A stretch of 64,000 bases of DNA, taken from an uncultured Bacillota bacterium. GTDB lineage: Bacteria; Bacillota; Clostridia; Christensenellales; Aristaeellaceae. The translations under genes were made by a program, and so were the position numbers. Below the pieces are notes generated by a model. It had not been told where the DNA came from and made no database searches. It saw nothing but the letters and a program-made list of their open reading frames with translations. Positions 22,953-50,422 of the stretch are shown here, one piece after another. Each line of letters begins with the position of its first letter. The stretch's first letter is position 1. The stretch spans positions 500,694 through 564,693 of the forward strand of contig CAWVKS010000008.1 of NCBI GenBank assembly GCA_963930055.1. The letters are read 5' to 3'.

Positions 22953-25900
22953 TCAGGAGCGGACGAGGATGTCCGTCCAGTCCGCTACGTCGCACTGGCC
23001 ATGATCGTTATTGCCCACGGCCACCACCGTGCCGTCCGACTTCAGGCCTACGGTATGATTGCCCCCGGCGCTGACCGCTACGATGTCCGTCCAGTCCGCT
23101 ACGTCGCACCGGCCGTCGTAGAAGTCTTCTGTTAATTCTTTCGCCACCACCGTGCCGTCCGACTTCAGGCCTACGGTGTGAGCGTTCCCGGCTCTGACTG
23201 CTACGATGTCCGTCCAGTCCGCTACGTCGCACTGGCCGTATTCGTTATTGCCCGCGGCCACCACCGTGCCGTCCGACTTCAGGCCTACGGTATGCCCGCT
23301 CCCGGCGCTGACCGCTACGATGTCCGTCCAGTCCGCTACCTCGCACTGGCCATCACCGTTCCAGCCCACGGCCACCACCGTGCCATCCGACTTCAGGCCT
23401 ACGGTGTGAGCGTTCCCGGCGCTGACCGCTACGATGTCCGTCCAGTCCGCTACGCCGCACTGGCCGTATTCGTTATTGCCCACGGCTACCACCGTGCCGT
23501 CCGACTTCAGGCCTACGGTATGTCCGTTCCCGGCGCTGACCGCTACGATGTCCGTCCAGTCCGCTACGCCGCACCGGCCGTCATCGTTATAGCCCACGGC
23601 CACCACCGTGCCATCCGACTTCAGACCTACGGTATGATACCACCCGGCGCTGACCGCTACGATGTCCGTCCAGTCCGCTGCGTCGCACTGGCCGACTTCG
23701 TTATAGCCCACGGCCACCACCGTGCCGTCCGACTTCAGGCCTACGGTATGCCAGCTCCCGGCGCTGACCGTCTCCCGGTCTGTGACCTGCTCCCAGAGGG
23801 CGAAACTCCGCTCGCGCGCGTTGGAATAATCGCCAAGCTGGCCATACAGGATAGCCGCCGCACCCAGATCCCCCGCCGCTTCCATGGCTTCCGCCGGAGC
23901 GAAGCGTATCGCCTGCGCGCGCTCCGGGGCGTCCTCGTAGTCGCCCGCAGCTTCAAACTCCGCTGCCGCGCCATCGGCATCGCCTGCTGCCAGCAATTCC
24001 TCTGCATTGGCGTAGTGTATTGCCTGTATGCGCTTTGCCGCATCCTGATAATTTCCGGCCAAGGCAAACTCTGCAAGCGCGCCGCTATCGTCCCCCGCCG
24101 CAAGCAGCGCTTCCGCGTGAGCGTAGTGCGCCGCGAGAGCGCGCTCCGGGGCGTCCTCGTAGTTGCCCGCAGCTTCAAACTCCGCCGCCGCGCCATCGGC
24201 ATCGCCTGCCGCCAGCAATTCCTCTGCATTGGCGTAGTGTATTGCCTGTATGCGCTTTGCCGCATCCTGATAATTTCCGGCCAAGGCAAACTCTGCAAGC
24301 GCGCCGCTATCGTCCCCCGCCGCAAGCAGCGCTTCCGCGTGGGCGTAGTGGACTCCCAGCGCCCTTGCCGGGGCGTCGCTGTAATCGCCCAGCGCGGTGA
24401 AAGCAGCGAGGGCGGCATCGTATTCGCCATTGGTCAGCAGCGCTTCCGCGTGGGCGTAGTGCGACGCGAGAGCGCGCTCCGGGGCGTCCTCGTAGTTGCC
24501 CGCAGCTTCAAATTCCGCCGCCGCGCCGCTATCGTCCCCCGCCGCAAGCAGCGCTTCCGCGTGGGCATAGTGGACTCCCAGCGCCCTTGCCGGGGCGTCG
24601 CTGTAATCGCCCAGCGCGGTGAAGGCGGTTAGGGCGGCGTCGTATTCGCCATTGGACAGCAGCGCTTCCGCATGGGCATAGTGCGCCGCAAGAGCGCGCT
24701 CCGGGGCGTCCTCGTAGTTGCCCGCAGCTTCAAATTCCGCTGCCGCGCCAGCAGCATCACCTGCCGCGAGCAATTCCTCTGCCAGAGTATAGTGGTCAGA
24801 TAACATTCGCATTGCGCGATTGCTGAGTTTGATGTCCGTCCAGTCCGCTACCTCGCACTGGCCGTCACCGTTATCGCCCACGGCCACCACCGTGCCGTCC
24901 GACTTCAGGCCTACGGTATGTAAGCTCCCAGCGCTGACCGCTACGATGTCCGTCCAGTCATCTACGTCGCACTGGCCGGAACCGTTGCCACCCACGGCCA
25001 CCACCGTGCCGTCCGACTTCAGGCCTACGGTATGAGAACTCCCGGCGCTAATCGCTACGATGTCCGTCCAGTCATCTACGTCGCACTGGCCGTCACCGTT
25101 ATCGCCCACGGCCACCACCGTGCCGTCCGACTTCAGGCCTACGGTATGATAGCCCCCGGCGCTGACCGCTACGATATCCGTCCAGTCATCTACGTCGCAC
25201 TGGCCGGAATGGTTACTACCCACGGCCACCACCGTGCCGTCCGACTTCAGGCCTACGGTATGATTGTCCCCGGCGCTGACCGCTACGATGTCCGTCCAGC
25301 CCTCTACGTCGCACTGGCCGCGACCGTTATCACCCACGGCCACCACCGTGCCGTCCGGCTTCAGGCCTACGGTATGACTCCACTCGGCGCTGACCGCTAC
25401 GATGTCCGTCCAGTCCGCTACGTCGCACTGGCCGGCGTAAGTCCCGCCGTATCCGATATACTCTGTCGCCACCACCGTGCCGTCCGACTTCAGGCCTACG
25501 GTATGATAGCCCCCGGTGCTGACCGCTACGATGTCCCTCCAGTCCGCTACGTCGCACCGGCCGGAAGCGTTATCGCCCACGGCCACCACCGTGCCGTCCG
25601 ACTTCAGGCCTACGGTATGCCATCTCTCGGCGCTGACCGTCTCCCGGTCGGCGACCTGCTCCCAGAGGGCGAAACTCCGCTCGCGCGCGTTGGAATAATC
25701 ACCGCTCCGGCCATAAAGCATGGCCGCCGCAGTCAAATCGCCTTCCGCCTCTGCGGCTTCCGCGTGGGCGTAGTGCGCCGCGAGGGCGCGCTCCGGGGCG
25801 TCCTCGTAGTCGCCCATGGCCTCGAAGGCCTGCGCGGCCTGCGCGTATTCGCCGCTCGCGTAGAGGGCTTCCGCCGCCTGATAGTTTTGGGCGGGGATAT

Positions 25901-27908
25901 AGACCTGTGTGATGTACCACGCCGCGATGGCCGCGATGGCGATGAGAAGCACGACGATGATGATATTGCGCTTATGCACCCGCTCCGCGCGCTCTTCTTC
26001 CGCCGTTTCCCGCGCTTGCAGTTCCGCCGCTTTCGCCTGACACTGCTTTGCGCGCTCGGCACTGTCCTTGTAGGCGTTCAAGTTTTGAAACGCGCTGACA
26101 AGACTTACAAATGTGGCAGCTCTTTTCGCCTCCGCCTGTTTCCGGCAAAGCCCCTGATACTCCTCTTCCCGTTTCGCCTCCGCTTCCTGCGCTTTCAGCG
26201 TCTCCATGCGCTCCTGGCACTGCTGTGCGCGTTCGGCACTGTCCTTGTAGCCCCTCAGCGCCTTGAAGGAGTCGGTGAGGCTATGGTAAGTCTCTTTGTT
26301 TTTCGCCTCTGCCTGCTTCCGGCATAGCTCCTGATAGTAGGCTTCCCGATTGGCCTCCGCTTCCTTGCAGAGCGCCTCGGCCTTGCGGTCGGCTTCGTTC
26401 AGCGCCTGGGCGTAGGCCTCCCGCGCCGCTTTTTCGGCCTCGGCGTCGCGCTGGCGGGCGCTTTGCAGGGCGGCGGCCAGGGCGTCTGCACAGGCGCGGT
26501 CTTCGGCGGCGAGCTTTTCTTTGAACGCGCCGCGGGCAAAGCTGCGGGCGCGGCGCAGGTCGCGGTCGGCGTCCAACGACTGGCGCAGTTCCTCCAGCTT
26601 TTCCTGCCAGTAGCCCAGCACGGCCTGATACGGCTCCGGGAGGGGGTAGAGGACACGGATGTTTTCCTCCAGCAGATAGCCGGGCACGGCGAAGCGCGCT
26701 GCGGCGGCCTCGGCGCGCGCTGGGTCGGGCATTGCCGCCCGCGTGGGGACGCCCTTTTCCCCGCGTTGCAGGTATTTGACGCTCTCTTCCACATGCTGCG
26801 TCAGGCTTTGCGCGCCCACGCGGGCGAGGAATTTGCCGCGCCAGGCCTCGGCGCACTCGGCGTCCATATCCAGCGCGCGGTCGAAAAATTCGTTTGCCGC
26901 CTTCCATTCGCCGTCTTCCAGCGACATTTCGCCGCGCTTGAGCAGGGCGACGAGGTTGGACGCGCCCTCGCCCTGCACGACCACCGTTTCATGGGCCGGC
27001 TCCGGCTCCTTGTCCGCGTCCAGCACCTTGTTGACGCCGCGGATGAGGTCCTGCAAAAAGCCGATCTTGCTCATATCGTAGGCCTGCAATACGGAGAGCT
27101 GTTCCGGCAGGTCGTAGGGGTCCATATCGCGGTAGCAGGGCAGGAGCAGCTTCTTTTTGTCCTTTTTCATCAGGGCGAGGAAGCGGCTCCACTCGTTTTT
27201 CACCCACACGGCGTTGAAGTTGCGCGCGCTGGTGCCCACCACGATCATCACCTTGGTAGAGTTGAGTGCGGCGAAGATGTACGGCTCGTACTGCTGGCCG
27301 GCCTTGTCCTCCAGCGTGATGCGCGCGAAGAAGACGCGGCGGCCCTGCTCCGTGAGTTGATAGTAAATCTCCTGCGCCATGATGGAATCGCGCGTGCGCT
27401 GGCCGTTTTCGTCCGTCTCCTTGTAGCAGATGAAAACGTCGAAGGGCGCTTCGGTCTGCGAGGTGGCGAGGATGCCGCGCTGCACCTCGGCGATCTTCTC
27501 CGCGTCCTGCCGGTACTGGGCGCGGGTGACGCCATCGGAATGCTGGAGGGCGGCGAGGTAGTCCACGTCCTCGAGGAAGCTATCGAAGCTGGCGCGGTGG
27601 CAGGTGGGAAGATAAGCGTGGGTGGCGGGGTCTTCCACGTATTCGATGCCGAAGCGGCAGAGGGCGCAGCACCAGTGCGCCTCGGCGTCGGTTTCGTCTT
27701 CTTCGACGATGCGCTCGTACACGGCCAGCGCCTTGTCAAATTCGCCGATGCGGCGGAAGTAGTTGCCGCGGTTGAAGGCGTTGGCGCGCTGTTCGTCGTC
27801 TATTTTGGGGAAGGTCATGGTGGAGCCGCAACTGTCGCAGGTGCCGTAGGTGCGGTCCGGCGAAAGCTCTATGTCGCCGCCGCACATTTTGCATTTGATG
27901 ATGGTCAT
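22953..27908 (-). CDS. Zn-ribbon / TIR-domain giant protein (1651 aa), paralog 1: coiled-coil, single TM helix, TPR-like repeats and two RCC1-like beta-propeller arrays
   Basis: N-terminus CKMCGG…CDSCGS zinc ribbon. TIR core FDVFICYKETDENGQRTRDSIMAQEIYYQLTEQGRRVFFARITLED…MIVVGTS…WVKNEWSRF. Duplicated coiled-coil. TM RNIIIVVLLIAIAAIAAWYITQVYI. About 16 units HTVGLKSDGTVVAVG-N--GQCDV--W-DIVAVSAG (RCC1_2-like) in two blocks, separated by about 12 TPR-like 34-37-aa units. AGGAGG RBS. Confidence 0.85.
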   Translation of the reverse strand: MTIIKCKMCGGDIELSPDRTYGTCDSCGSTMTFPKIDDEQRANAFNRGNYFRRIGEFDKALAVYERIVEEDETDAEAHWCCALCRFGIEYVEDPATHAYLPTCHRASFDSFLEDVDYLAALQHSDGVTRAQYRQDAEKIAEVQRGILATSQTEAPFDVFICYKETDENGQRTRDSIMAQEIYYQLTEQGRRVFFARITLEDKAGQQYEPYIFAALNSTKVMIVVGTSARNFNAVWVKNEWSRFLALMKKDKKKLLLPCYRDMDPYDLPEQLSVLQAYDMSKIGFLQDLIRGVNKVLDADKEPEPAHETVVVQGEGASNLVALLKRGEMSLEDGEWKAANEFFDRALDMDAECAEAWRGKFLARVGAQSLTQHVEESVKYLQRGEKGVPTRAAMPDPARAEAAAARFAVPGYLLEENIRVLYPLPEPYQAVLGYWQEKLEELRQSLDADRDLRRARSFARGAFKEKLAAEDRACADALAAALQSARQRDAEAEKAAREAYAQALNEADRKAEALCKEAEANREAYYQELCRKQAEAKNKETYHSLTDSFKALRGYKDSAERAQQCQERMETLKAQEAEAKREEEYQGLCRKQAEAKRAATFVSLVSAFQNLNAYKDSAERAKQCQAKAAELQARETAEEERAERVHKRNIIIVVLLIAIAAIAAWYITQVYIPAQNYQAAEALYASGEYAQAAQAFEAMGDYEDAPERALAAHYAHAEAAEAEGDLTAAAMLYGRSGDYSNARERSFALWEQVADRETVSAERWHTVGLKSDGTVVAVGDNASGRCDVADWRDIVAVSTGGYHTVGLKSDGTVVATEYIGYGGTYAGQCDVADWTDIVAVSAEWSHTVGLKPDGTVVAVGDNGRGQCDVEGWTDIVAVSAGDNHTVGLKSDGTVVAVGSNHSGQCDVDDWTDIVAVSAGGYHTVGLKSDGTVVAVGDNGDGQCDVDDWTDIVAISAGSSHTVGLKSDGTVVAVGGNGSGQCDVDDWTDIVAVSAGSLHTVGLKSDGTVVAVGDNGDGQCEVADWTDIKLSNRAMRMLSDHYTLAEELLAAGDAAGAAAEFEAAGNYEDAPERALAAHYAHAEALLSNGEYDAALTAFTALGDYSDAPARALGVHYAHAEALLAAGDDSGAAAEFEAAGNYEDAPERALASHYAHAEALLTNGEYDAALAAFTALGDYSDAPARALGVHYAHAEALLAAGDDSGALAEFALAGNYQDAAKRIQAIHYANAEELLAAGDADGAAAEFEAAGNYEDAPERALAAHYAHAEALLAAGDDSGALAEFALAGNYQDAAKRIQAIHYANAEELLAAGDADGAAAEFEAAGDYEDAPERAQAIRFAPAEAMEAAGDLGAAAILYGQLGDYSNARERSFALWEQVTDRETVSAGSWHTVGLKSDGTVVAVGYNEVGQCDAADWTDIVAVSAGWYHTVGLKSDGTVVAVGYNDDGRCGVADWTDIVAVSAGNGHTVGLKSDGTVVAVGNNEYGQCGVADWTDIVAVSAGNAHTVGLKSDGTVVAVGWNGDGQCEVADWTDIVAVSAGSGHTVGLKSDGTVVAAGNNEYGQCDVADWTDIVAVRAGNAHTVGLKSDGTVVAKELTEDFYDGRCDVADWTDIVAVSAGGNHTVGLKSDGTVVAVGNNDHGQCDVADWTDILVRS

Positions 27909-30401: not shown

Positions 30402-30422
30402 ATGTATCCCCTTCCCAATTTT

Positions 30423-31112
30423 TTACTTGTTCAGTTTGCAGAGCCGGTTTCTTTCCGCGAGCAGGGCGGCGGTTTTGCGGCAGAGTTCGAGCACGCCGTC
30501 GCCATCGCCATCGGTGAGGGCGCGCTCCATGCTGTCCATGCAGGCGCGCAGGTCGGCTTCCAGCGGCGCGGTGGCGGCGTTGCTGACGGGGTCGCTGAAG
30601 CGGAATTCATCGGCGAGCTTTTTCAGCTGCGCGCACACCGCCTCGCCCTGCGCCTGGCCCGCCAGCGCCCCGGCGCGGGACTGCAATTCGCGCATGGCGG
30701 CGACGTCCTTTTGCAGATGGACGTCCTGACGGCGAATCTCATCGCGGATGGCGGAGGCGGCCATGCAGCCGATGGCCGCCAGCACGAAGATGACCGCTTC
30801 CACCACCAGCGCCGCCCAGAGGGGAATCCAAACGCTCAGCGCCATGCACAGCAGGCCGACGACGGCCTGCGCCAGCAGATAGACGAGTGCCAGCTGGGCG
30901 ATGGGGAAGCCATAGAGGCTATCGCGCGCCCCGCCCTTGGGGGTGAAGGCGTAAAGCGACAGAGGCAATTGCGCGACGATGGCCGCGCTGGTAAAGGCGT
31001 AGGCCAGCCAGAAGACAGGCGTGCGCACGAAGGGAATGGCAAAAGCGATGACATTAAAGAGCGCCAGCAGCAGCACGACGGTCGCGGCGACGCGCGCGAT
31101 GTTCTTTTTCAT
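30423..31112 (-). CDS. Small integral membrane protein (4 predicted TM helices + C-terminal coiled-coil)
   Basis: Hydrophobic segments (VAATVVLLLALFNVIAFAIPF; VFWLAYAFTSAAIVAQLPL; LALVYLLAQAVVGLLCMALSV; LWAALVVEAVIFVLAAIGC) followed by a helical soluble tail. AGAGGGAGG RBS. Confidence 0.6.
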   Translation of the reverse strand: MKKNIARVAATVVLLLALFNVIAFAIPFVRTPVFWLAYAFTSAAIVAQLPLSLYAFTPKGGARDSLYGFPIAQLALVYLLAQAVVGLLCMALSVWIPLWAALVVEAVIFVLAAIGCMAASAIRDEIRRQDVHLQKDVAAMRELQSRAGALAGQAQGEAVCAQLKKLADEFRFSDPVSNAATAPLEADLRACMDSMERALTDGDGDGVLELCRKTAALLAERNRLCKLNK

Positions 31113-31115
31113 GGT

Positions 31116-32885
31116 TTAACCCTCCCTCTTTTTGCCGCAGTTGGGGCAGAAGTTCGAGACGATTCCCTTTTGGCCACAGTCCGGGCAAGTCCAGCCCGTA
31201 TCCGGCGCGGGGCGCTTGTGGCCGCAGTTGGGGCAGAAATTCGATGTGATGCCCTTCTGGCCGCACTCCGGGCACGTCCAGCCCATATCCGGCGCGGGAC
31301 GCTTGTGGCCGCAGTTCGGGCAGAAGTTCGAGGCGATGCCCTTCTGGCCGCACTCCGGGCAATCCCAGCCATTCGGGGCGATGGCCCCGCCCACGGCCCT
31401 GCCCATCTGCGCGGCAGCATCCATGACGGGGTTGAGCGCGTCCTTGGTCATGCCGACCACGCTGCCCATGGCCCCGAGGGTGACGCCAAGTCCGGCGAGG
31501 TCGCCAAGGCCGCCGACTGCGCCGCCGCCATTGCCGGTGATGCCGTTTTGCATGGCCTCCAGACCCACCTGACGGGCGGTTTCCTGCTGGTAGGTATAGC
31601 CCTTCATGCGCATTTCCTCGGCTTCGGCGGCGGCCTTCATGCGGTAGGCCTCGGCTTCGGCCTGTTTCTGTATCTTCAGGGCTTCGGCCTCGCCCTGCGC
31701 GCCGATGATCTTCATCTGCGCGGCGGTTTGCGCCTCCACGGCCTTGCGGCGGGCGGCGGCTTCGGCCTCGCGGCGACGGATTTCCTCCTGGCGCACGCCG
31801 AGATACTGTTCGGCAAACTGTTCCTTCATGCGGCGGAAGTTGGGGTCGTCGTCCGGCGTGACCACGCGGCTGACGAAAAACTCCGCCATTTCCAGACCGT
31901 ATTCGGCCAGGCGGGGGTTGATCTTTTCGCGCAGAGCCTCGCTCAGCTCCATCAGCCGCTCGTCGATTTCCAGCACGCTGATGCCCTTTTCGCGGATGGC
32001 CGCAGCCAGATAGCTCTTCACCTGCGTCATCACCATGGCGCGGAAAAAACCCTTGCCGCCGCCGAGCAAATCCTCCTGCCGCAGGGTGGAAGTGGTGCCC
32101 ACCACGCGCAAAAGCAGCTTGCGGGCGTTGACCACGCGAATGTTGAATTCGCCGCTGGCGCCCAGTTCCACGTGCAGGCCGCTGGTGGGGTCAAAGAGGC
32201 GCACCTTGCTGTCCGTGCCCCACTTCACGCCCATCTGCGTGGCCATATTGATGAAGTAGACCTCGGAATGGAAGGTGCCCTCGGTGTCCGTGGGCAGCTT
32301 ATAGAGCTTTTCCAGCATGGGCAGCTGCTGCGTTTCCAGCGTGTAGCGGCCCGCGCCGAAGGCGTCCAGCGCCTGCCCGTCGCGGAAGAAGATGGCTTCC
32401 TGGCTTTCGTGGACGATGAGCTGGGAGCCGAGGTTGAAGTCCTCGATGGGGTGTTTCCAGACCAGCGTGTCGCCGTCGCCCTCGTATTTGATGATGCTGG
32501 CCAGGCCGTCCTGACGGATTTGTTCGGCCTTGAGGCGCTCGACGACGTCGTTTTCAAAATCGCACACCGGGCAGACATAGCGCTCCGCCCCGCGCGCCAC
32601 GCGCAGGCGCACGCCGCACTGACGGCAGGAAAACTCCACCGCCTTGGTCTGTTCGGCCATGGTGTTGATGGCCTCGCCGCAGACGGGGCAGCGCGCGTCC
32701 GCCCCCTTGGACTGGTCGAAAACCACATTGTTGCCGCAATGGGGGCAGGTGCGGCTGGCCATTTTGTCCGTGCGGACGTTGATGGTATAGCCGCAGGCGC
32801 AGTCGATCTTCTTGCGGGCGAAAAAGCCCGTCTTTGCTTCCACGTATTTCCCGCAGCGCGGGCATTCGATGACGAATTTGGCCAT
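31116..32885 (-). CDS. SPFH/band-7 (Band_7_1, YdjI-like) protein with six zinc-ribbon modules
   Basis: Three N-terminal CxxC…CxxC ribbons, a central SPFH-like core, a coiled-coil (…REAEAAARRKAVEAQ…) and three tandem C-terminal repeats GW(D/T)CP(E/D)CGQKGI.SNFCPNCG(H/K)KR. Start at MAKFV with a GAGGGA RBS; the track's start is MRENTMAKF at 32900. Confidence 0.8.
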   Translation of the reverse strand: MAKFVIECPRCGKYVEAKTGFFARKKIDCACGYTINVRTDKMASRTCPHCGNNVVFDQSKGADARCPVCGEAINTMAEQTKAVEFSCRQCGVRLRVARGAERYVCPVCDFENDVVERLKAEQIRQDGLASIIKYEGDGDTLVWKHPIEDFNLGSQLIVHESQEAIFFRDGQALDAFGAGRYTLETQQLPMLEKLYKLPTDTEGTFHSEVYFINMATQMGVKWGTDSKVRLFDPTSGLHVELGASGEFNIRVVNARKLLLRVVGTTSTLRQEDLLGGGKGFFRAMVMTQVKSYLAAAIREKGISVLEIDERLMELSEALREKINPRLAEYGLEMAEFFVSRVVTPDDDPNFRRMKEQFAEQYLGVRQEEIRRREAEAAARRKAVEAQTAAQMKIIGAQGEAEALKIQKQAEAEAYRMKAAAEAEEMRMKGYTYQQETARQVGLEAMQNGITGNGGGAVGGLGDLAGLGVTLGAMGSVVGMTKDALNPVMDAAAQMGRAVGGAIAPNGWDCPECGQKGIASNFCPNCGHKRPAPDMGWTCPECGQKGITSNFCPNCGHKRPAPDTGWTCPDCGQKGIVSNFCPNCGKKREG

Positions 32886-32896
32886 GGTGTTTTCCC

Positions 32897-33889
32897 TCAC
32901 TTCTCTGTTGTGTTGCGGTCGGTCTGCATATCCTCGATGGCGGTTTGGTAGAAGGCGCGGAAGAAGGCGGATCCGTCATAGGCCTTGCCAGCGCAACTCA
33001 ACGTGTCCTCGTCAAAGCCCAGGCCGCGCACGTCCGCGCCGTAGACCTTCAGAAGTTCGTGTTTGACGGTTTCCTGAGCGCATTTCGGCGCATAAAACAC
33101 CGTCTTTCCATGGTGGGCGCGCTCGCGCTTTTTGCGGTTCAGCAGCCACCAGAAATCCCATTCGGAAAAATCGCTGCCGAAGCCGAGTATGTAGACGTCG
33201 CCCATGATGAAAGCGTCCAGCCAGCTTTCCAGCAGCGGCGGCTGGCCGTTTTGCTGGCGCTCGCGCTGCTCGTCGGCGCGCGCGGAGAGGTGCTTGTCGT
33301 AGTTTTGGAGCAGCTTGCCGTAGAGATAATGGCCGAGGATGACGCTCTCGGGCTTGCGCGCCTCGCCGTGGATGTGCCAAATCTTCTGTTCGCGCCCTTC
33401 GCGAACGACGGCGTTGTAGGTGTGCAGAAGGTATTTCGTCTCCGCGTGCTGGCTCGTGTGGCGCATGGCCGCCTTGAAGGGGCATTTTTTATGGAGGCAC
33501 TTCCCCTGCGGGCAGAGGCGCGCCTCGAGGGCGGGGTCGGCGGCGCATTCCAGCTCATAGCTGTAATTTGTGGTCAGTATATGGTCAAAACCCATGTTCC
33601 AAACGGGTTCCAGCGCCGCGCGCAGGGCGGAAAGCCCCCGCAGGCAGCAGAGCGCGGCGCGGTTTTCGCGTATGGCCGCATCCACCGCGTCTTTTGTGCC
33701 CAGCACCACTTGCAGCGGGAAGGGAATCCCCGCAACCTGCGGGTTTTCATGGGAAATGCTGTCGTTCTTCCAGAAGTTTTTGATGAGCCCTCCCCAGCTT
33801 TCGCCGCCAAAGGCGCGGTTCAGGCCGTTGCCCAGCAGCAGAACTTGGGGATAGACGTCCTGCGGGCCTTGCGTGCTGTTGTATTCCAT
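32897..33889 (-). CDS. SIR2-like domain protein (SIR2_2/DUF4020 type, standalone, about 330 aa)
   Basis: …VLLLGNGLNRAFGG… Rossmann-like start. Catalytic-type motifs ILTTNYSYE (TTNY Asn) and IWHIHGE (His). …ILGFGSDFSEWDFWWLL… typical of the bacterial SIR2_2 family. No SLOG/Macro domain follows. GGAAAGG RBS before ATG 33889. Confidence 0.8.
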   Translation of the reverse strand: MEYNSTQGPQDVYPQVLLLGNGLNRAFGGESWGGLIKNFWKNDSISHENPQVAGIPFPLQVVLGTKDAVDAAIRENRAALCCLRGLSALRAALEPVWNMGFDHILTTNYSYELECAADPALEARLCPQGKCLHKKCPFKAAMRHTSQHAETKYLLHTYNAVVREGREQKIWHIHGEARKPESVILGHYLYGKLLQNYDKHLSARADEQRERQQNGQPPLLESWLDAFIMGDVYILGFGSDFSEWDFWWLLNRKKRERAHHGKTVFYAPKCAQETVKHELLKVYGADVRGLGFDEDTLSCAGKAYDGSAFFRAFYQTAIEDMQTDRNTTEK

Positions 33890-33934
33890 GTTTGGCCAAC
33901 CTTTCCGGCGCAATGCGCGCCTGTGCATTGGGGG

Positions 33935-36900
33935 TTACTGGCGGACGAGGATGTCGGACCAGGTGGAGACGCCATAGTTTCTGCCCACAGCCACTACCGT
34001 GCCGTCGGATTTCAGGCCCACTGTATGCCAGAATCCAGCGCTGACCGCCACGATGTCTGTCCAGTCCTCTACGTCGCACTCGCCATCCTGGTTGCTGCCC
34101 ACAGCCACCACCGTGCCGTCCGACTTCAGGCCCACTGTATACCAGTTTCCAGCGCTGACCGCCACGATGTCTGTCCAACCCTCTACGTCGCACTGGCCAT
34201 GGTAATTATCGCCCACAGCCACCACCGTGCCGTCCGACTTCAGGCCCACGGTATGTCTGTTCCCAACGCTGACCGCCACGATGTCTATCCAGCCCTCTAC
34301 GTCGCACTGGCCATAGCCATTATCGCCCACAGCTACCACCGTGCCGTCCGACTTCAGGCCCACGGTATGTTCGTATCCAGCGCTGACCGCCACGATGTCT
34401 GTCCAATCCTCTACGTCGCACTGGCCATCGTAATCCTCGCTGTCTCCGGTATACTCTGTCGCCACCACCGTGCCATCTGACTTTAGGCCCACTGTATGCC
34501 GGTCTCCAGTGCTGACTGCCACGATGTCTATCCAGCCCTCTACGTCGCACTGGCCATGGTAAAACTTGCTGTCTGCGTTATACTCTGTCGCCACCACCGT
34601 GCCGTCCGACTTCAAGCCCACGGTATAGCTCATAAAAACGCCACCCCCAGCGCTGACCGCCACGATGTCTGTCCAGCCCTCTACGTCGCACTCGCCATCG
34701 TAATTATAGCCCACAGCCACCACCGTGCCGTCCGACTTCAGGCCCACGGTATGATATCCCCCAGTGCTGACCGTCTCCCTGTCGGCGATTTGTTCCCAGA
34801 TGGCGAAACTCCGTTCCCGCGCGCCGGGATAATCGCCAAGCTGGCCGTACAGGATGGCCGCCGCGCCCAGATTTCCTTCTGCCTCCATGGCTTCCGCCGG
34901 TGCGAAGCGAATTGCCTGCGCGCGTTCCAATGCGTCTTCATAGTCGCCTGCGGCCTCGAATGCCGTTGCTGCGCCGTCGGTGTCGCTCGCCGCAAGCAGC
35001 GCTTCCGCCTTGGCGTAGTGCGTTGCCAGTATGCGCTCCGACGCATCCTCATAGCTGTCTGCGGCCTCAAATTCCGCAATCGCTCCGTCGTAATCCCCCG
35101 CCGCCAGCAGCGCTTCCGCCTGTGCGTAGTGCGTTACCGGTATGCGTTCCGACGCATCCTCATAGCTGCCTGCGGCCTCAAATTCCGCAATCGCTCCGTC
35201 ATAGTCCCCTGCCGCCAACAGCTCTTCCGCCTTGGCGTAGTGTACGCCCGGTATGCGCTGCGGGGCGTCGTTGTAGTTCCCCAGCGCTGCAAATTCCGCC
35301 AGCGCGCCGTCATAGTCCCCCGCCGTTTGTAGGGCGTCCGCGTAGGCATAACGCGCCTGGAGCATGCGGGATGTGGCGTCTTTGTATCCGCCTATGGCTT
35401 CAAACGCCTGTGCCGCCTCCTCATATTGGCCGCTCTCGTAGAGTTCTTCCGCTGCCTGATAATTCTGGGAGGGGATAAATATTTGCGTAATGTACCACAA
35501 CGCTACCGCCGCGATGGCGATTAGGAGCACGGCGATGATGATATTGCGCTTGCGCTTCCTTGCCTGCTCCTGCGCATGCTGCAGCGCCACCTGCTCCTGC
35601 TTATCTCTCAAATCACGACATTGCTTTGCGCGCTCGGCGCTGTCTTTATAGTCTTTCAGGCGTCTAAAGTCACTGCTGAGGTCTGCAAATTCGTATGCGG
35701 TTTTCGCCTCCGCCTGCTTCTTGCAAAGCAGCTGGTAGTCCTCTTCCCGGCGCGCTTCAGCTTGGTGGAAAAGTTCCTCCGCCTTGCGGTCGCACTCGTC
35801 CAGCGCCTGAGCGTAGGCCTTGCGCGCCGCTTCCTTTGCCTGCGCGTCGCGGCGCTCCGCCTGTTGCACGCACTCGTTCCAGCGGCTCTCAAAGGCCCGT
35901 TCCCCCGATTCCAGCTGCTCATTGAAAGGCCCGGCGGCGAAATGGCGCGCTTTTTTCATGTCGCTGTCGTTGGCGAATTTGGCCCGGTTTTGATTGCTTG
36001 TCGACAGCCAGTAGTCCGCCACTGAAGTATACGGCTTGGGCGGCGCGTATTGGGCGCGGATTTCGCTTTCCGTCAGGTAATTCTCGATGGCAAAGCGCTT
36101 GACCGCCGCGTCGGCGCGGGATTTGTCCGCCTGCGCGGCTTCTTTGGACACGCTCTTTTCGGCCCGTTTGGCGCGCTCGATCTGCTCCGCCGCGTACTGG
36201 GCGATGCCACTTGTCTGCACGCGGGCGAGAAATTTGCCCAAATAGGCCTCGGCGCATTCGGCGTTCATGTCCAGCACGCGGTCGAAGAACTCGTCCGCCG
36301 CCTTCCAGTTGCCGTCGCTCAGCGCCATGTTGCCGCGCTTGAGCAGGGCGTCGCCGGAAACGCCGCCCGCCGCCTGGACGACAACCTGCTGCGCGCTCTG
36401 CGCCGCGCCCTTGCCCAGCAGCTTTTCCACGCCGCGCACCAGATCCTGCACAGCGCCCAGCTTGCCCATGTCCTGCCCTTGCAGGTGGGTAAACTCCTTC
36501 GGCATGTCATAAGCGTCCACGCCCTTGTAGCAGGGAATCAGGTGCTTCTTCTGCCCCGAGGCGATGAGCGCGAGGAAGCGGCTCCATTCGTTCTTTACCC
36601 ACACGGCGTTGAAGTATTCATAGTCCGTGCCGAACACCAGCATCACCTTGGCGCTGTTCAGCGCCGCGAAGATGTACGGCTCGTATTCCGTGCCCAACTT
36701 GTCCTCCAGCGTGATGCGTGAGAAGAAGACCCGATAGCCCTTCTCCGTCAGGGCGTCGTACACCTCCTGCGCCATGACGCTGTCCGGCGTGCGCTCGCCG
36801 TTCTCGTCCGTCTCCTTGTAGCAGATGAATATGTCATAGGGCTGTTCTTTCCCCGACAGTTCCACGATGCGGCGGCGGATGTCCTCGATGGCCTTCGCTT

Positions 36901-37303
36901 CCTCGCGGTACACCTTGCGCGAAACGGCGTCGGCGTTCTCCTGAGCCTGTTCAAAGTCCGGGTCCTCCAGGATGCTCTCGAAGGACGAGCGGTGGCAGGT
37001 GGGTATCTTTTTGCCGGTGGCCGGGTCGTCCACGTATTCGATGCCGTAGCGGCAGAGGACGAGGCCCCAATATGCCTCCGCTTCGGTGGGGAACTCGGCG
37101 ACGATGCTTTCGTACACCGCGGCCGCCTTGTCGAATTCGCAGGCCGCGCGCAGGCGGTTGGCGCGGGCAAACAGCGTCAGTTTCTTCTCATTGTCCGCCG
37201 TGGGCACCGTCTGCCGCGTGCCGCAGTATTCGCACTCCGCCACGGTCATGCCCGCCTCGATGTTCAGGTCGCCTCCGCACATCTTGCACTTGATGATGGC
37301 CAT
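33935..37303 (-). CDS. Zn-ribbon / TIR-domain giant protein (1122 aa), paralog 3: coiled-coil, single TM helix, TPR-like repeats and an RCC1-like propeller
   Basis: Same head as paralog 2. TM RNIIIAVLLIAIAAVALWYITQIFI. About 10 TPR-like units, then about 9 RCC1-like blades. GGGAGGAAGAG RBS. Confidence 0.85.
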   Translation of the reverse strand: MAIIKCKMCGGDLNIEAGMTVAECEYCGTRQTVPTADNEKKLTLFARANRLRAACEFDKAAAVYESIVAEFPTEAEAYWGLVLCRYGIEYVDDPATGKKIPTCHRSSFESILEDPDFEQAQENADAVSRKVYREEAKAIEDIRRRIVELSGKEQPYDIFICYKETDENGERTPDSVMAQEVYDALTEKGYRVFFSRITLEDKLGTEYEPYIFAALNSAKVMLVFGTDYEYFNAVWVKNEWSRFLALIASGQKKHLIPCYKGVDAYDMPKEFTHLQGQDMGKLGAVQDLVRGVEKLLGKGAAQSAQQVVVQAAGGVSGDALLKRGNMALSDGNWKAADEFFDRVLDMNAECAEAYLGKFLARVQTSGIAQYAAEQIERAKRAEKSVSKEAAQADKSRADAAVKRFAIENYLTESEIRAQYAPPKPYTSVADYWLSTSNQNRAKFANDSDMKKARHFAAGPFNEQLESGERAFESRWNECVQQAERRDAQAKEAARKAYAQALDECDRKAEELFHQAEARREEDYQLLCKKQAEAKTAYEFADLSSDFRRLKDYKDSAERAKQCRDLRDKQEQVALQHAQEQARKRKRNIIIAVLLIAIAAVALWYITQIFIPSQNYQAAEELYESGQYEEAAQAFEAIGGYKDATSRMLQARYAYADALQTAGDYDGALAEFAALGNYNDAPQRIPGVHYAKAEELLAAGDYDGAIAEFEAAGSYEDASERIPVTHYAQAEALLAAGDYDGAIAEFEAADSYEDASERILATHYAKAEALLAASDTDGAATAFEAAGDYEDALERAQAIRFAPAEAMEAEGNLGAAAILYGQLGDYPGARERSFAIWEQIADRETVSTGGYHTVGLKSDGTVVAVGYNYDGECDVEGWTDIVAVSAGGGVFMSYTVGLKSDGTVVATEYNADSKFYHGQCDVEGWIDIVAVSTGDRHTVGLKSDGTVVATEYTGDSEDYDGQCDVEDWTDIVAVSAGYEHTVGLKSDGTVVAVGDNGYGQCDVEGWIDIVAVSVGNRHTVGLKSDGTVVAVGDNYHGQCDVEGWTDIVAVSAGNWYTVGLKSDGTVVAVGSNQDGECDVEDWTDIVAVSAGFWHTVGLKSDGTVVAVGRNYGVSTWSDILVRQ

Positions 37304-39015: not shown

Positions 39016-40363
39016 GTACAATAAGTTGCGCAAAAAAGAATAGACATGGTAGGCAGGCAGCTGGTAGAATGGAGTTGCTACACGACACATTCGAAAGGAG
39101 CCTGGGGACCATGTCTGAGAAGATTGTAACACTGAACGAGGAAGTAATCAAGGGGCAAATCAAGGAACTGGTGCGCGGGAGCGTTGAGGAAACGCTGAAC
39201 GAACTGCTGGAGGCAGAAGCGGAGAAGCTGACGCAGGCCGCACGATACGAGCGCAACGAGGCCCGTCAGGGCTACCGCAGCGGCCACTACGACCGGAACC
39301 TGACCACGACCTCCGGCGACGTGACACTGCACGTGCCTCGTCTGAAGGGCGTATCCTTCGAGACAGCGATCATCGAGCGGTACCGCCGCCGGGAGAGCAG
39401 CGTGGAGGAAGCGCTGATCGAGATGTATCTAGCAGGTGTCTCTGTGCGCCGGGTGGAGGACATCACGGAGGCGCTGTGGGGCAGCAAGGTATCTCTGGCC
39501 ACGATCAGCGAGCTGAACAAGAAGGCGTATGTCCACATCGAGGACTGGCGAAACCGTCCTTTGCAGGGCGGAAAGTATCCTTATGTGTATGTAGACGGCA
39601 TCTATCTGCGCCGGAATTGGGGCGGAGAGTACGAAAACGTGGCCATACTGGTGGCGATTGCGGTCAATGAGGACGGTTACCGGGAGGTTCTGGGCGCTGC
39701 GGAGGGAATGAAGGAGGACAAGGCCAGCTGGGTCGGCTTCTTCCAGTGGCTGAAGGGCCGTGGCCTGGACGGCGTAAAGCTCATTGTCGGCGACAAGTGC
39801 CTGGGGATGCTGGAGGCTGTGGGCGAGGTCTTTCCTGACGCGAAATACCAGCGCTGCACGGTGCACTTCTACCGCAACGTGTTTTCGGTCGTGCCCCGTT
39901 CCAAGGTGAAGCACGTTGCAAAGATGCTCAAGGCGATCCACGCACAGGAGAGCAAGAAGGCCGCCCGCGAGAAGGCCAGAGCCGTCATCACCGAGCTGCG
40001 CGAGATGAAGCTGAAGGAGGCGGCAAAGAAGGTAGAGGACGGCATTGAGGAGACGCTGACCTACTGCGATTTCCCACCCGAACACTGGACGCGGATCCGC
40101 ACGAACAACGTCATGGAACGCCTGAATCGCGAGATCCGCAGGCGCACCAGGCTCGTGGGTACCTTCCCTGATGGCAACTCCGCCCTGATGCTCGTCTGCG
40201 CCCGCCTGCGCCATGTCGCAGGCACCCAGTGGGGAAACAAGAAGTACATGAACATGAAGCACCTGGAGGCTACCCTCTGCGATTCCTCCATTGCCTGACA
40301 ACTCTTTTCTTTCACTGCCTGCATACTATTTTGCGCATAATGGTTGACAGTACCTACAATTCC
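39016..40363 (+). mobile_element. IS256-family insertion sequence (about 1.35 kb); the alternative outer boundary is 42482
   Basis: Left end GATAAGGTACAATAAGTTGCGCAAAA follows the IS256 IRL pattern (GATAAAGT…TTGTGTAAAA). A degenerate IRR-like ttttgcgcataatggttgacagtacct lies at about 40333-40360. A perfect inverted copy of the 24-bp IR lies at 42459-42482. Confidence 0.6.
39111..40298 (+). CDS. IS256-family (mutator-type) transposase
   Basis: Full-length similarity pattern of IS256 transposases (…YVYVDGIYLRRNWGGEYENVAILVAIAVNEDGYREVLG…CTVHFYRNV…). 395 aa. Confidence 0.9.
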   Translation: MSEKIVTLNEEVIKGQIKELVRGSVEETLNELLEAEAEKLTQAARYERNEARQGYRSGHYDRNLTTTSGDVTLHVPRLKGVSFETAIIERYRRRESSVEEALIEMYLAGVSVRRVEDITEALWGSKVSLATISELNKKAYVHIEDWRNRPLQGGKYPYVYVDGIYLRRNWGGEYENVAILVAIAVNEDGYREVLGAAEGMKEDKASWVGFFQWLKGRGLDGVKLIVGDKCLGMLEAVGEVFPDAKYQRCTVHFYRNVFSVVPRSKVKHVAKMLKAIHAQESKKAAREKARAVITELREMKLKEAAKKVEDGIEETLTYCDFPPEHWTRIRTNNVMERLNREIRRRTRLVGTFPDGNSALMLVCARLRHVAGTQWGNKKYMNMKHLEATLCDSSIA

Positions 40364-41462: not shown

Positions 41463-42368
41463 TCAGGCGTTCTGCGCCTGGCTGTACTTCTGGCTGATCC
41501 AGCGCACTTTGCCGTCCAGCAGGATGGGATTCCAGCCTTCCGCGTCGATGCCGTGCAGGACGTCGCCTGCGTGGGCGATCATCACCGAATCGTATTCCTT
41601 CCCTGGGCCAGTGCGGATATGGACAGAGCCGCCCGTGACCAGAATCGGCTTCTGGCTGGACGGCTCGCTGCCGGTGGATTGGGAGAGCGGTTTCGCCTCC
41701 GCGTTGAGGCCGAGGTCGTTGAGGGTGGCAAGGCTGGTTTCGCCGGTCGCTTCCTGGCCTTGGCTTGTCTGGAAATCTTTCAGCGCCTTTTGCGTCTTTT
41801 CGCCGAATTCGCCGTCCTCGCTGATGTCCGCGCCGTGCGCATTGAGCGCCTGTTGCAGCCGCAGCGTGCGATACCCTTTCATCCCCAGGCGCAGCGCGCA
41901 GGCCGGGTTGTAGCGGACAACGCCGCATACCTTGCCGGCATAGAGGGAGATGGAGTTGGTACACACGCCGTACTTCGTGCCGCGGGCGTGGACGATCTGC
42001 GTGGGCGAGGCCACCATCGTCACGTGGGTGATCTTATTGGCGCGGCTGGTGCCGGAGTCCGTGCAGAGGAATTGCAGGTCGCCGGGCTGTTTGGCCATAT
42101 TGATGACCGAAGCCCCGCCGAAGCTCTTGCCGATCTGGGCGTAGGTAGCAGGCCAGAGCAATTCGAAGTCATCGTCGTAGATCTCCTTGTTGCTCGTCGG
42201 TACGCTGCCACCGTACTTCCAGCGCTTGCCTTGCGCGGAGTAGGCGCGGGCAACGAGGGAGGAACAGTCGAAGATGCCCTCCTGCGTGCGCCTGGCCTGA
42301 CTGTATGCACAGCCAACTTTGGATAAGGCCCAGTCCGCAGCGGACTGGGCCAGGGTTGTGTAGGACAT
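41463..42368 (-). CDS. Phage-type endolysin: NlpC/P60 (CHAP-like) peptidase + PG_binding_1 + SH3-like domain
   Basis: Catalytic Cys context VGCAYSQARRTQEGIFDCSSLV. PG-binding repeat (…LRLQQALNAHGADISEDGEFGEKTQKALKDFQ…). C-terminal SH3-like block (ILVTGGSVHIRTGPGKEYDSVMIAHAGDVL…). Same domain order as the 50694-51779 product. Confidence 0.7.
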   Translation of the reverse strand: MSYTTLAQSAADWALSKVGCAYSQARRTQEGIFDCSSLVARAYSAQGKRWKYGGSVPTSNKEIYDDDFELLWPATYAQIGKSFGGASVINMAKQPGDLQFLCTDSGTSRANKITHVTMVASPTQIVHARGTKYGVCTNSISLYAGKVCGVVRYNPACALRLGMKGYRTLRLQQALNAHGADISEDGEFGEKTQKALKDFQTSQGQEATGETSLATLNDLGLNAEAKPLSQSTGSEPSSQKPILVTGGSVHIRTGPGKEYDSVMIAHAGDVLHGIDAEGWNPILLDGKVRWISQKYSQAQNA

Positions 42369-42458
42369 GGAGGTCGCTCCTGTTCTATGATTTTGCGGGT
42401 CGGTCGTGCGGCGATTACGCATGATATTCTAGAGTTTATCAGACCTGCACTCATTCTT

Positions 42459-49127: not shown

Positions 49128-50422
49128 TTTCGGTTCCTCCTCTTTGCATGCTCTGCGGCCTGTTCCTTCATTTCGTCTGTCCAGCTGTCGCGGCGCGAAG
49201 GGCCTTTCCACGTTTTTTCTACCTTGCGCCCATCCCGGAAGATAAACGCCAGCCGGTTTCCTTCACAAATGCGGATGTGGTTGATCTCCCGTTCAAACAG
49301 CCCGGCATCAAACGTATCCGTCCCCAGTACCTCAGCGCTGACGGCCTCAAGGATGGATTCCCTGATCTGTTTGGCGGGGCAAAGGGCCTTTCCGCGTGTC
49401 ATATAGGTCGAACACTGCCATGCGATCTTTCCGCTGTTGACGCGCCGTTTGTAATGCTTCCCACAATGGCCGCAGATGAGCCTTTGTGAAAACGGATAGT
49501 GCGCCCGAACGCCATGCCCTTCGGGAAACGCCACCGCACGCTCGCGGATGCTCTGCTGCACTTCTTCAAAGACCTCGCGGGAAACGATGGCTTCATGGTC
49601 GTCACGAACGAGGTATTGCGGCAGTTCGCCGAGGTTGGGGCGGTCGATCTTGCTGAGATGGTCAACGCGATACTGCTTTTGCAGGAGCAGGTCGCCCTGG
49701 TATTTTTCATTGCGCAGGATCGTTTCGACGACGCTCTCATGCCAGATGCCGCCACGCTTGGCGGGGACGCCGCGGCGGTTCAATTCCCGTGCGATGCCGT
49801 TTTTGCCCATCCCCGCGCGACGCAGTTCAAAGATCAGCGCAACAGCCTTTGCTTCATCTGGGATGACTGTGACCTTGCCATGGTCGATCCTGAGGCCGTT
49901 TAGTCTGGTGGTCGTAGGGATACCCTGCTGAAACTTCTGGCGTATGCGCCACTTGCAGTTTTCGGACACCGAGCGGCTCTCTTCCTGCGCATACGACGCG
50001 AGGATGGTCAGCATCAGCTCGCCGTCCCCGCTCATGGAGTGGATGTTCTGTTCCTCGAAGTAGACGTCCACGCCCAGTGTTTTCAGCTCGCGCACCGTCT
50101 CCAGCAGCGTGACCGTGTTGCGCGCAAAGCGGCTGATGCTCTTCGTGAGCACCATGTCGATCTTACCTGCCCGGCAGTCCGCCAGCAGGCGCCGGAACCC
50201 TTCCCGGTTATCCTTCGTGCCGGTCAGCGCTTCGTCTACATACACCCCGGCATATTCCCACTCGGGATTTTTCTGGATGTGATCGCTGTAATAACTGACC
50301 TGCGCGGACAGGGAGTGAAGCATCGCGTCCTTGCCGCTGGACACGCGGGCATAGGCTGCCACGCGCCTACGCTGGGGCAATGATGGGATTCCCGCTTCCA
50401 TTTTTCGTATGACCTTTTCCAC
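49124..50422 (-). CDS. Large serine recombinase (second, tandem)
   Basis: …VAAYARVSSGKDAMLHSLSAQ… catalytic Ser region plus recombinase and Zn-ribbon domains. GGAGG RBS and GTG start. Confidence 0.85.
   Translation of the reverse strand: MEKVIRKMEAGIPSLPQRRRVAAYARVSSGKDAMLHSLSAQVSYYSDHIQKNPEWEYAGVYVDEALTGTKDNREGFRRLLADCRAGKIDMVLTKSISRFARNTVTLLETVRELKTLGVDVYFEEQNIHSMSGDGELMLTILASYAQEESRSVSENCKWRIRQKFQQGIPTTTRLNGLRIDHGKVTVIPDEAKAVALIFELRRAGMGKNGIARELNRRGVPAKRGGIWHESVVETILRNEKYQGDLLLQKQYRVDHLSKIDRPNLGELPQYLVRDDHEAIVSREVFEEVQQSIRERAVAFPEGHGVRAHYPFSQRLICGHCGKHYKRRVNSGKIAWQCSTYMTRGKALCPAKQIRESILEAVSAEVLGTDTFDAGLFEREINHIRICEGNRLAFIFRDGRKVEKTWKGPSRRDSWTDEMKEQAAEHAKRRNRK

Follow-up and report, generated by a model that had tools for sequence, protein, structure and literature searches.

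Within 64,000 nucleotides of DNA from an uncultured Bacillota bacterium of the Aristaeellaceae (GenBank assembly GCA_963930055.1, contig CAWVKS010000008.1, positions 500,694 to 564,693; hereafter the window), one operon encodes three large paralogous proteins with an N-terminal TIR domain, here called A, B and C. Since A and B each carry a strongly hydrophobic segment between their TIR half and a half built from repeats, the question arises whether this segment spans the membrane and, if so, what a TIR domain coupled to an exposed repeat structure would do for the cell. The original prediction, made from the letters of the sequence, had proposed a receptor-like arrangement analogous to that of Toll-like receptors. 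From the computational follow-up presented here, we conclude that the three proteins most likely belong to a polymorphic TIR sensor system that is partly exposed at the cell surface, the sensor function being inferred. Coordinates are window positions throughout, and amino acid (aa) numbers refer to A unless stated otherwise.

Membrane topology of A and B

The hydrophobic segments comprise aa 587-611 of A (RNIIIAVLLIAIAAVALWYITQIFI) and aa 648-672 of B (RNIIIVVLLIAIAAIAAWYITQVYI), exactly as originally quoted, and reach Kyte-Doolittle means over 19 residues of 2.78 (aa 588-606) and 2.82 (aa 649-667), respectively, together with a sum of about -3.8 kcal/mol on the biological scale of Hessa. All other windows of the two proteins stay at or below 1.3 and the maximum in C is 0.95, which leaves exactly one segment of transmembrane (TM) grade in A and in B and none in C. 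Composition-preserving shuffles (2000 per protein) matched the observed maximum not once for A and twice for B. The segment indeed separates a TIR/coiled-coil half from a TPR/RCC1 half, with the TIR_2, TPR and RCC1_2 matches found where they had been placed, and it directly follows basic residues (RKRKRN in A, RVHKRN in B); C, with its Arg/Glu/Ala-rich C-terminal tail, holds up as the variant that lacks the TM helix.

The same arrangement recurs among relatives. In the 120 best full-length homologs (43-100% identity), retrieved with the full protein, exactly one TM-grade segment is present in 107, at aa 501-705 and mostly at ~583-610, and the other 13 have none, like C; wherever the segment occurs in this set, the RCC1 repeats invariably lie downstream of it. 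Across 88 distinct TM contexts, the 15-residue flank on the N-terminal side holds a mean of 6.83 Lys and Arg residues and the C-terminal flank 1.82, with the N-flank being the richer one in 87 contexts and acidic residues equal on both sides. A and B thus show one segment of TM length and an N-in charge bias, as type II single-pass proteins do, and according to their hydrophobicity profiles no N-terminal leader or signal sequence is present. The propellers themselves also have relatives outside the cytoplasm: 94 of 120 short propeller homologs (≤505 aa) start with a hydrophobic stretch resembling a signal peptide or lipobox, 8 have an internal TM segment, often after a zinc ribbon, and many carry the surface-protein repeat Flg_new_2. 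In the short proteins P0312 and P0276, a cassette of TM segment, juxtamembrane motif IIPxxxYxxA and propeller forms an N-terminal signal anchor.

Because the positive-inside bias is combined with the lack of an N-terminal leader and with a Cys4 zinc ribbon at the N-terminus, an N-in/C-out single-pass topology is predicted for A and B. As four independent computational lines support it, namely hydrophobicity beyond chance, conserved position of the TM segment, positive-inside bias and a propeller type that is mostly extracytoplasmic elsewhere, we regard this topology, and with it the earlier claim that the two halves lie on opposite sides of the membrane, as highly probable.

One could still imagine that the segment does not span the membrane but is buried, for example, in an oligomeric helical bundle, so that both halves would be cytoplasmic. 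In line with this, the AlphaFold model of A has a confidence (pLDDT) below 50 across aa 576-602 with an incomplete helix that is called only from aa 596, and the same propellers exist in TM-less relatives such as C. The low confidence is uninformative at this place, speaking neither for nor against a TM helix. A Kyte-Doolittle mean of 2.8 over a stretch of 19-25 uncharged residues, a bimodal distribution of maximum hydrophobicity across a diverse sample of the family, with no intermediates between 1.8 and 2.0, the charge bias in nearly every context and the signal-anchor use of the same cassette in the two short proteins all argue against a buried segment, and we consider such an explanation very improbable.

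A constant head of the putative NAD-cleaving type

The N-terminal zinc ribbon, likewise part of the original prediction, is borne out by conservation and modelling: the cysteines of its CxxC...CxxC pattern (C6, C9, C24, C27) are invariant or ≥90% conserved in four homolog alignments (A1-A4), and it is modelled as zinc-ribbon beta structure with strands at aa 2-5, 12-15, 21-23 and 30-32. It is followed by a TPR match (aa 44-81) and a TIR_2 match, the latter at aa 158-281 in all three proteins (E 2.9e-11 to 5.8e-10). Glu239 within the TIR domain is retained without exception in all four alignments, and its counterpart in TcpB (chain 4lqc_A) is the Glu of 'WPARE', which we take to be the catalytic residue of that protein. 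When the head model was compared with solved structures by Foldseek, the TIR domains of SARM1, TIR-1, AbTir, MyD88 and SPARTA were matched with probability 1.00. By fold and candidate catalytic residue, A, B and C are therefore TIR-superfamily members of the NAD-cleaving type. TIR NADases, for instance SARM1, AbTir, plant TNLs, TIR-STING and Thoeris, require a conserved Glu and self-association.

Over their first 300 codons, the genes for A and C are separated by 48 synonymous codon differences but by no more than 2 non-synonymous ones, a ratio that points to strong purifying selection on the head. The two stretches (36404-37303 and 29502-30401) represent a recent duplicate, and identity collapses past codon ~300-330; this pattern suggests that different tails may have been exchanged onto a conserved head by recombination.

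The family is large. A search of 1.84 billion cluster representatives with the first 300 residues as head query yielded 7358 clusters (50% identity) at E ≤1e-3 and 4112 at ≤1e-30. As heads are 56-85% identical where the whole proteins share <50% identity, the head is the constant and the tail the variable part. Among 146 representatives, 86 have no TM segment, 48 have one and 12 have several; overall, roughly 45% of the family carry a TM segment. The tails of the single-TM members include RCC1_2 (10/48), DUF6273 (9), BspA-type LRR_5 (6) and LRR_8 (5), as well as Flg_new and RHS, and those of the TM-less members RCC1_2 (13/60), DUF6273 (11/60) and LRR_5 (4/60), as well as ankyrin, MORN and WG repeats. 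The LRR_5 repeats that were checked lie downstream of the TM segment, and TIR-TM-LRR proteins exist; relatives of this kind with an A-type head are P0432, P0440, P0454, P0484, P0487 and P0505 and the protein encoded at 9195-13148 of locus L035, and TM-less LRR_5 versions are represented by, e.g., P0404 and P0471.

In a scan of one genome per species, at least 575 head matches were found in gut and rumen Clostridia, with carriers in Oscillospiraceae, Acutalibacteraceae, Ruminococcus, Lachnospiraceae, Christensenellales and Erysipelotrichaceae, so that lineages dominant among gut Firmicutes (Oscillospiraceae, Lachnospiraceae, Ruminococcus, Christensenellales) are covered, and including the cultured strains Pseudoflavonifractor capillosus An827 and Blautia sp. 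HCP3S3_H10_2. The idea of a phage- or plasmid-borne system was ruled out, as the head is chromosomal even though the present copy adjoins prophage remnants and mobile-element genes; no match to the head was found in INPHARED isolate phages or PLSDB plasmids, and IMG/VR gave a single one.

Stalk, repeats and propellers

Between the TIR domain and the TM segment of A lies a helical 'mid' domain, in which AlphaFold places a 75-residue helix (aa 458-532) that runs toward the membrane. Among TM forms, this domain (aa 317-585) could be aligned over ≥180 aa in 27 of 52, but among TM-less relatives in just 3 of 53 (Fisher p 8e-8). On the other side of the segment, helical hairpins spanning aa 627-839 recur with a 37-residue period (Y.DA..R at 640, 677, 714, 751 and 788); they are matched at aa 621-751 by the Pfam families TPR_19, TPR_2 and TPR_16 and, weakly and below threshold, by the periplasmic TPR protein YbgF/CpoB. 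In B, eight helical repeats of 37 aa stand between its two propellers.

Such modules would also suit another role, in which the TM segment does no more than anchor exposed repeats that serve as adhesins or surface-layer parts, for instance by binding host or dietary ligands, and the cytoplasmic TIR domain is a scaffold unconnected to such binding. BspA-type LRRs, Flg_new and RCC1-like propellers are indeed typical surface modules of gut anaerobes, and many of the stand-alone propeller homologs are lipoprotein-like. However, the head is subject to very strong purifying selection, with its catalytic-type Glu kept, the conserved stalk domain is specifically tied to TM forms, and TM-less paralogs with the same tails in the same operon would be left unexplained. 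We therefore think that adhesins are an improbable explanation of the repeats.

By motif, A has 7 blades, B 7+7 and C 7, and RCC1_2 matches cover 6 (A), 13 (B) and 7 (C) stretches (Pfam E 2e-45 to 9e-111). The full-length AlphaFold model of A (mean pLDDT 86.4; >90 in hairpins and propeller) settles the blade count for which structure prediction had been proposed: aa 845-1107 form one closed and complete 7-blade propeller with seven strand groups. The best match among solved structures is the secreted BLIP-II (chain 1jtd_B; Foldseek E 1e-17, TM-score 0.75-0.77, 30% identity). ACR4, a plant receptor kinase, is matched as well through its ectodomain (7a0j; E 2e-10, TM-score 0.71), and both matches fit a propeller outside the membrane.

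The blades are near-perfect repeats of a 38-residue consensus, WTDIVAVSAG-xx-HTVGLKSDGTVVAVG-x-N-xx-GQCDV. Comparison of the propeller-coding parts of B (22956-25655), C (27927-29100) and A (33983-34771) revealed that the scaffold codons are nearly invariant even at synonymous sites (a mean of 0.11 of blade pairs differ), whereas 77-92% of blade pairs disagree at five loop codons, where Trp, Tyr, Asn, Asp, Ser and Gly are frequent. We infer from this contrast a putative diversified binding surface, as in BLIP-II. A diversity-generating retroelement was ruled out as source of the hypervariability by the codon pattern, since the variable codons vary at all three positions, with TGG being the commonest among them; no reverse transcriptase was matched among the neighbouring open reading frames (ORFs) scanned. 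The diversity may stem from gene conversion plus selection, or from another mechanism.

TM-less relatives often end in a conserved GLFxGKRRxEIExRLxxI... motif (C terminus of C, 27927-28260; P0501, P0414, P0422), and others have a zinc ribbon at that end, of the form CxHCGGxxKGxFxKKCxxCGxxKDY. These tails may be docking elements that replace the TM segment.

The operon and its conserved partners

A, B and C are encoded together with four further genes in a tight operon on the minus strand, which runs from 37668 to 22953 with intergenic gaps or overlaps of ≤21 nt (Table 1). The order is RHH, A, SIR2_2, SPFH/Band_7_1, a 229-aa protein with about four TM helices (4-TM protein), C and B. The ribbon-helix-helix (RHH) gene, whose product is likely a transcriptional regulator, stops 2 nt ahead of the start of A; the SIR2_2 gene starts 6 nt past A and overlaps the start of the SPFH gene by 4 nt. 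A protein identical to A (P0121) is encoded on public contigs of up to 740 kb. The original prediction had grasped the architecture of A and B but overlooked the SIR2 gene within the operon, the conserved SPFH and 4-TM partners and how large the family is.

Table 1. Features of the TIR operon in the window.
Feature	Position	Strand	Basis and remarks
RHH protein, 120 aa	37306..37668	-	Pfam RHH_1 E 4e-5; operon gene 1
Protein A, 1122 aa	33935..37303	-	zinc ribbon, TPR-like, TIR, stalk, TM, 37-aa repeats, propeller
A aa 1-34, C4 zinc ribbon (C6, C9, C24, C27)	37202..37303	-	alignments, model
A aa 155-296, TIR domain	36416..36841	-	Pfam TIR_2 E 2.9e-11; candidate catalytic Glu239 in WVKNEW
A aa 317-582, 'mid' domain, cytoplasmic (predicted), helical	35558..36355	-	AlphaFold pLDDT ~90
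A aa 588-610, TM helix (predicted)	35474..35542	-	follows RKRKRN; KD19 (Kyte-Doolittle, 19 residues) 2.78
A aa 612-839, motif IPxxNYxxAE, then helical hairpin repeats	34787..35470	-	predicted extracytoplasmic; pLDDT >90
A aa 845-1107, 7-blade RCC1_2/BLIP-II-like propeller	33983..34771	-	predicted extracytoplasmic; blade motifs, model, Foldseek
SIR2_2-family protein, 343 aa, accessory operon gene	32897..33928	-	Pfam SIR2_2 E 3e-6
SPFH (Band_7_1) protein, 594 aa, conserved partner	31116..32900	-	Pfam Band_7_1 E 4e-39; DZR, Zn_ribbon_3
229-aa membrane protein, conserved partner	30423..31112	-	~4 TM helices and cytoplasmic helical tail
Protein C, 824 aa	27927..30401	-	A-type head, no TM, one 7-blade propeller, Arg/Glu-rich C-terminal helix
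Protein B, 1651 aa	22953..27908	-	head, stalk, one TM, two 7-blade propellers
B aa 649-671, TM helix (predicted)	25896..25964	-	follows RVHKRN; KD19 2.82
B aa ~752-1035, first 7-blade propeller	24804..25655	-	blade motifs at aa 764-997
B aa ~1375-1650, second 7-blade propeller	22956..23786	-	blade motifs at aa 1387-1618

The neighbourhoods of 36 loci of ≥17 kb, mostly from GTDB species-representative genomes, contain an SPFH homolog in 31 cases, the 4-TM protein in 25, an RHH homolog in 14, where it stands upstream of the TIR genes, and a SIR2 gene in only 5. The 4-TM gene usually lies directly 3' of the SPFH gene, and in 17 of the 36 loci there are between two and five TIR paralogs, which differ in their tails. 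Since the SPFH gene can stand before or after the TIR genes, the association is not mere shared ancestry of one arrangement. That the SPFH partnership might be common to all zinc ribbon-TM-propeller proteins was considered and rejected, as two TIR-less examples that were checked have no SPFH neighbour. In one locus without SPFH (L004), a 1403-aa protein with a weak Card1-endonuclease-like match (positions 3529-7740 of that locus) precedes the TIR-TM-propeller gene, which hints at alternative partner or effector genes.

Besides its Band_7_1 domain, the SPFH protein has zinc ribbons at the N-terminus and, behind a low-complexity stretch rich in Gly, three zinc-ribbon repeats at the C-terminus, which are tandem units of ~29 residues (GWxCPxCGQKGIxSNFCPNCGxKR; 31116-31320). 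This triple ribbon resembles, in amplified form, the single zinc finger described for the C-terminus of B. subtilis SamI (YdjI). SamI belongs to the PspA-SamGHI system and is a Band_7_1 SPFH protein with a low-complexity stretch and a C-terminal zinc finger (PMC8581546; 10.64898/2026.02.06.704340); SamG, a zinc-ribbon membrane protein (PMC9239133), and SamH recruit it, and it keeps the signalling of both in check (PMC8581546; PMC9239133; 10.64898/2026.02.06.704340). As described, both systems encode a Band_7_1 SPFH protein with C-terminal zinc finger beside membrane-protein partners, with the difference that the zinc-ribbon proteins of the present operon bear a TIR domain and large variable tails. 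Profile scans, including Pfam, NCBIfam and PADLOC, gave no family match for the 229-aa protein, and sequence searches of the SPFH and SIR2 proteins against the PDB returned nothing useful.

It could hence be argued that the operon is an envelope-stress or housekeeping signalling module, in which the SPFH and 4-TM proteins correspond to SamI and SamH, the zinc-ribbon TIR proteins replace SamG and the ectodomains track the state of the bacterium's own wall or membrane. Apart from the SamI layout of the SPFH partner and the zinc-ribbon domain of SamG, it speaks for this idea that a ydjG primer (PMC8581546) translates into MIISYKCPNC, the TIR heads beginning with MAIIKCKMCGG, and that some of the loci lie among metabolic genes. 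On the other hand, no PspA gene was seen among the genes listed for four contigs, the other loci not having been specifically searched for it, and extreme tail polymorphism, two to five paralogs per locus, hypervariable blade loops and mobile-element neighbours are unexpected for a housekeeping sensor. Taken together, a module of this kind appears unlikely, although it is the alternative that we take most seriously.

The SIR2_2 gene raises yet another option, namely that A, B and C are ThsB-like signal makers in a Thoeris-like two-step system with the SIR2_2 protein as NAD+-depleting effector. The position of this gene within the operon, overlapping the start of the next gene, the resemblance of several TIR genes around one SIR2 to Thoeris loci with multiple thsB, weak sub-threshold matches to Thoeris type III ThcB4 and PDC-S66 and the recent report of many new Thoeris effector types (10.64898/2025.12.03.692087) would all fit such a scheme. 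Yet SIR2 is as rare in the long loci as SPFH is common (5 versus 31 of 36), no ThsA or ThsB model reaches its threshold, and ThsB proteins are small and cytoplasmic. The NCBIfam ThcB4 model scores 19.4 bits against a cut-off of 220 and PADLOC gives no ThsB match; besides lacking ThsB-type recognition, the operon has no recognisable effector with a signal-binding domain beside a TIR gene. The 343-aa SIR2 protein itself has no Pfam, NCBIfam or PADLOC match beyond its SIR2_2 region, with a weak match to LmuA as its only PADLOC result. A Thoeris-like division of labour at this locus is, in our view, rather improbable.

Comparison with known systems

PADLOC and NCBIfam scans of the three TIR proteins and eight neighbouring ORFs, which included all four other operon genes, gave only sub-threshold noise, and A, B and C are not recognisable as components of Thoeris, CBASS, SPARTA or retron-TIR systems. 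Neither a bacterial TIR-TM-ectodomain protein nor a TIR/SPFH operon was found described in the full-text literature searched, which included recent surveys of bacterial TIR proteins and covered subscription journals in part. With ThsB, TIR-STING, SPARTA TIR-APAZ and AbTir/TcpB, the proteins share the TIR fold, the conserved Glu and the modular fusion to sensors, and the respective loci likewise hold several paralogs and now and then a SIR2 gene nearby; no described system is known to include the zinc-ribbon/TPR cap or the SPFH and 4-TM partners. To our knowledge, the bacterial TIR proteins characterised so far are cytoplasmic or secreted effectors, none of which has a TM segment followed by a large ectodomain. 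The family looks like an undescribed group of TIR-based conflict sensors, reminiscent of a bacterial repertoire of pattern sensors placed both at the surface and in the cytoplasm.

The analogy to Toll-like receptors stands for the overall layout: like these and the IL-1 receptors, A and B are predicted single-pass proteins with a repeat-built ectodomain and a cytoplasmic TIR domain, they are germline-encoded, polymorphic and present as multiple paralogs, and some of their relatives even have LRRs after the TM segment. It fails in other respects. Toll-like receptors are type I proteins with a signal peptide, an LRR ectodomain and a C-terminal TIR domain, whereas A and B have the inverted, type II orientation with the TIR domain at the N-terminus, TPR-like repeats and an RCC1/BLIP-II-like propeller instead of LRRs, and a TIR domain that, unlike adaptor TIRs, keeps the Glu of NAD-cleaving TIRs, with no adaptor TIR proteins present. 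As orientation, ectodomain and TIR type all differ, A and B are not members of this receptor class, the likeness being one of layout only, and there is no evidence for common descent of the whole architecture.

Closer parallels to the individual parts exist. BLIP-II of Streptomyces, a secreted protein that binds other proteins very tightly through aromatic loop residues on one face, shares the 7-blade propeller with short (~38-40 aa) blades of the RCC1_2 type; it differs in being free and devoid of TM and TIR parts, and its target class with beta-lactamase/PBP fold (PBP, penicillin-binding protein) is not implied for A and B. Propeller receptor kinases (ACR4/CRINKLY4 and bacterial Ser/Thr kinases of the PknD type) share the order of cytoplasmic enzyme, one TM segment and extracytoplasmic beta-propeller, and bacterial Hanks kinases are N-in/C-out proteins with an internal signal anchor, as predicted for A and B. 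Compared with these kinases, the output domain of A and B is a TIR domain and the cytoplasmic part is much longer (~585-650 aa).

Surroundings of the operon

A scan of the operon for promoters and terminators gave no clear signal above shuffle expectation. An antisense ORF of 1537 aa (28338-32951, plus strand) opposite the genes for C, the 4-TM protein and the SPFH protein was judged spurious, an artefact of high G+C content, because its G+C content at third codon positions is 0.64 compared with 0.77-0.78 in the three TIR genes and because the genes on the opposite strand are conserved elsewhere.

The island that contains the operon has a tyrosine integrase (17893-19377) on one side and a Mutator-family transposase (39069-40298) on the other, followed by prophage remnants at ~41-64 kb that comprise tail proteins, endolysins and a serine recombinase. 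The prophage zone (41463-63968) includes endolysin-like genes (41463-42422, 50694-51863), a large serine recombinase (47532-49211), a pair of tail or tail-fibre-like paralogs on opposite strands (45061-47427, plus; 55048-58356, minus), a further tail protein (53008-55035) and a weak tape-measure-like match (61257-63968); these remnants may derive from two separate elements. Close by the tyrosine integrase, three large ORFs of 556, 1173 and 406 aa (12165-17449 and 19334-20554) have no Pfam, NCBIfam or PADLOC match, the two larger ones also none in PHROGs, and may be further cargo of the mobile island. The G+C content falls to 0.49-0.53 at 18-22 kb.

Proposed function and implications

We propose that A and B are type II TIR membrane proteins. 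Their cytoplasmic part would comprise the zinc ribbon, the TPR-like cap, the TIR domain with its catalytic-type Glu and the long helical stalk, and their outside part the helical repeats, which bear one (A) or two (B) BLIP-II-like propellers. The tails could act as ligand-binding sensors of foreign proteins, for example of phage or competitor components, with A and B sensing outside the cell and C inside; the original suggestion that an exposed propeller could sense phage adsorption or cell-wall events is plausible. Binding of a ligand would then cluster the proteins or alter the coiled-coil stalk, the long helix before the TM segment serving as signal conduit, and the clustered TIR heads might oligomerise and cleave NAD+, which would lead to depletion or to production of a signal, in analogy to SARM1, plant TNLs, TIR-STING and Thoeris. 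On account of the SamI-like layout of the SPFH protein, and since SamI restrains signalling by SamG and SamH, we suggest that the SPFH/4-TM pair is a membrane platform or brake for all zinc-ribbon heads, that of the TM-less C included; the SIR2 protein would be an additional NAD-consuming effector at this locus.

Several observations weigh against this proposal. The tail families of the single-TM members are similarly frequent in members without a TM segment, so that the type of tail is not specific to a compartment and is no proof of a location outside the cell; the original view of the propeller as an outside domain consequently stands as far as the topology of A and B is concerned, and fails insofar as a propeller is not in itself an outside domain, the same tails being found in TM-less relatives. 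Some loci are embedded among ordinary metabolic genes, which leaves a role in defence without firm support from the gene neighbourhood. None of the PADLOC system models is matched, and the NCBIfam models for Thoeris and retron-TIR stay far under their cut-offs. The helix is poorly modelled at the very segment that the topology depends on, and the SamGHI system acts in envelope-stress signalling and not in immunity (PMC8581546). All in all, we hold type II TIR proteins with outside propellers, acting as sensors on an SPFH/4-TM platform, to be the best explanation of the whole, with somewhat better than even chances of being right.

The characterised TIR systems of bacteria, as far as we know, sense infection from inside the cell. 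If the proposal is correct, a hypervariable binder that is exposed at the surface and wired to a TIR enzyme would mean that a threat can be detected before or at its entry. It would also represent an independent invention of the Toll-like receptor layout. As the family lies outside PADLOC and NCBIfam, inventories of immune systems in the gut microbiome may miss it. Near-idealised blades with five variable codons would further make the propeller a natural binding scaffold of possible interest for engineering, and the existence of cultured carriers makes the question directly testable. More tentatively, and with the odds rather against it, one could speculate that gut Clostridia maintain a large germline repertoire of pattern-recognition receptors, built from a constant zinc-ribbon/TIR head and hypervariable binding scaffolds (propellers, LRRs, DUF6273), about half of them at the surface and half in the cytoplasm. 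The surface forms would then be the first receptors of bacteria in which recognition outside the cell, whether of a phage on adsorption, of a bacteriocin or of a protein from a competitor, is relayed to a TIR NADase behind the membrane, and the repertoire would operate on an SPFH/4-TM platform and provide an outside-in TIR immunity that arose independently of Toll-like receptors.

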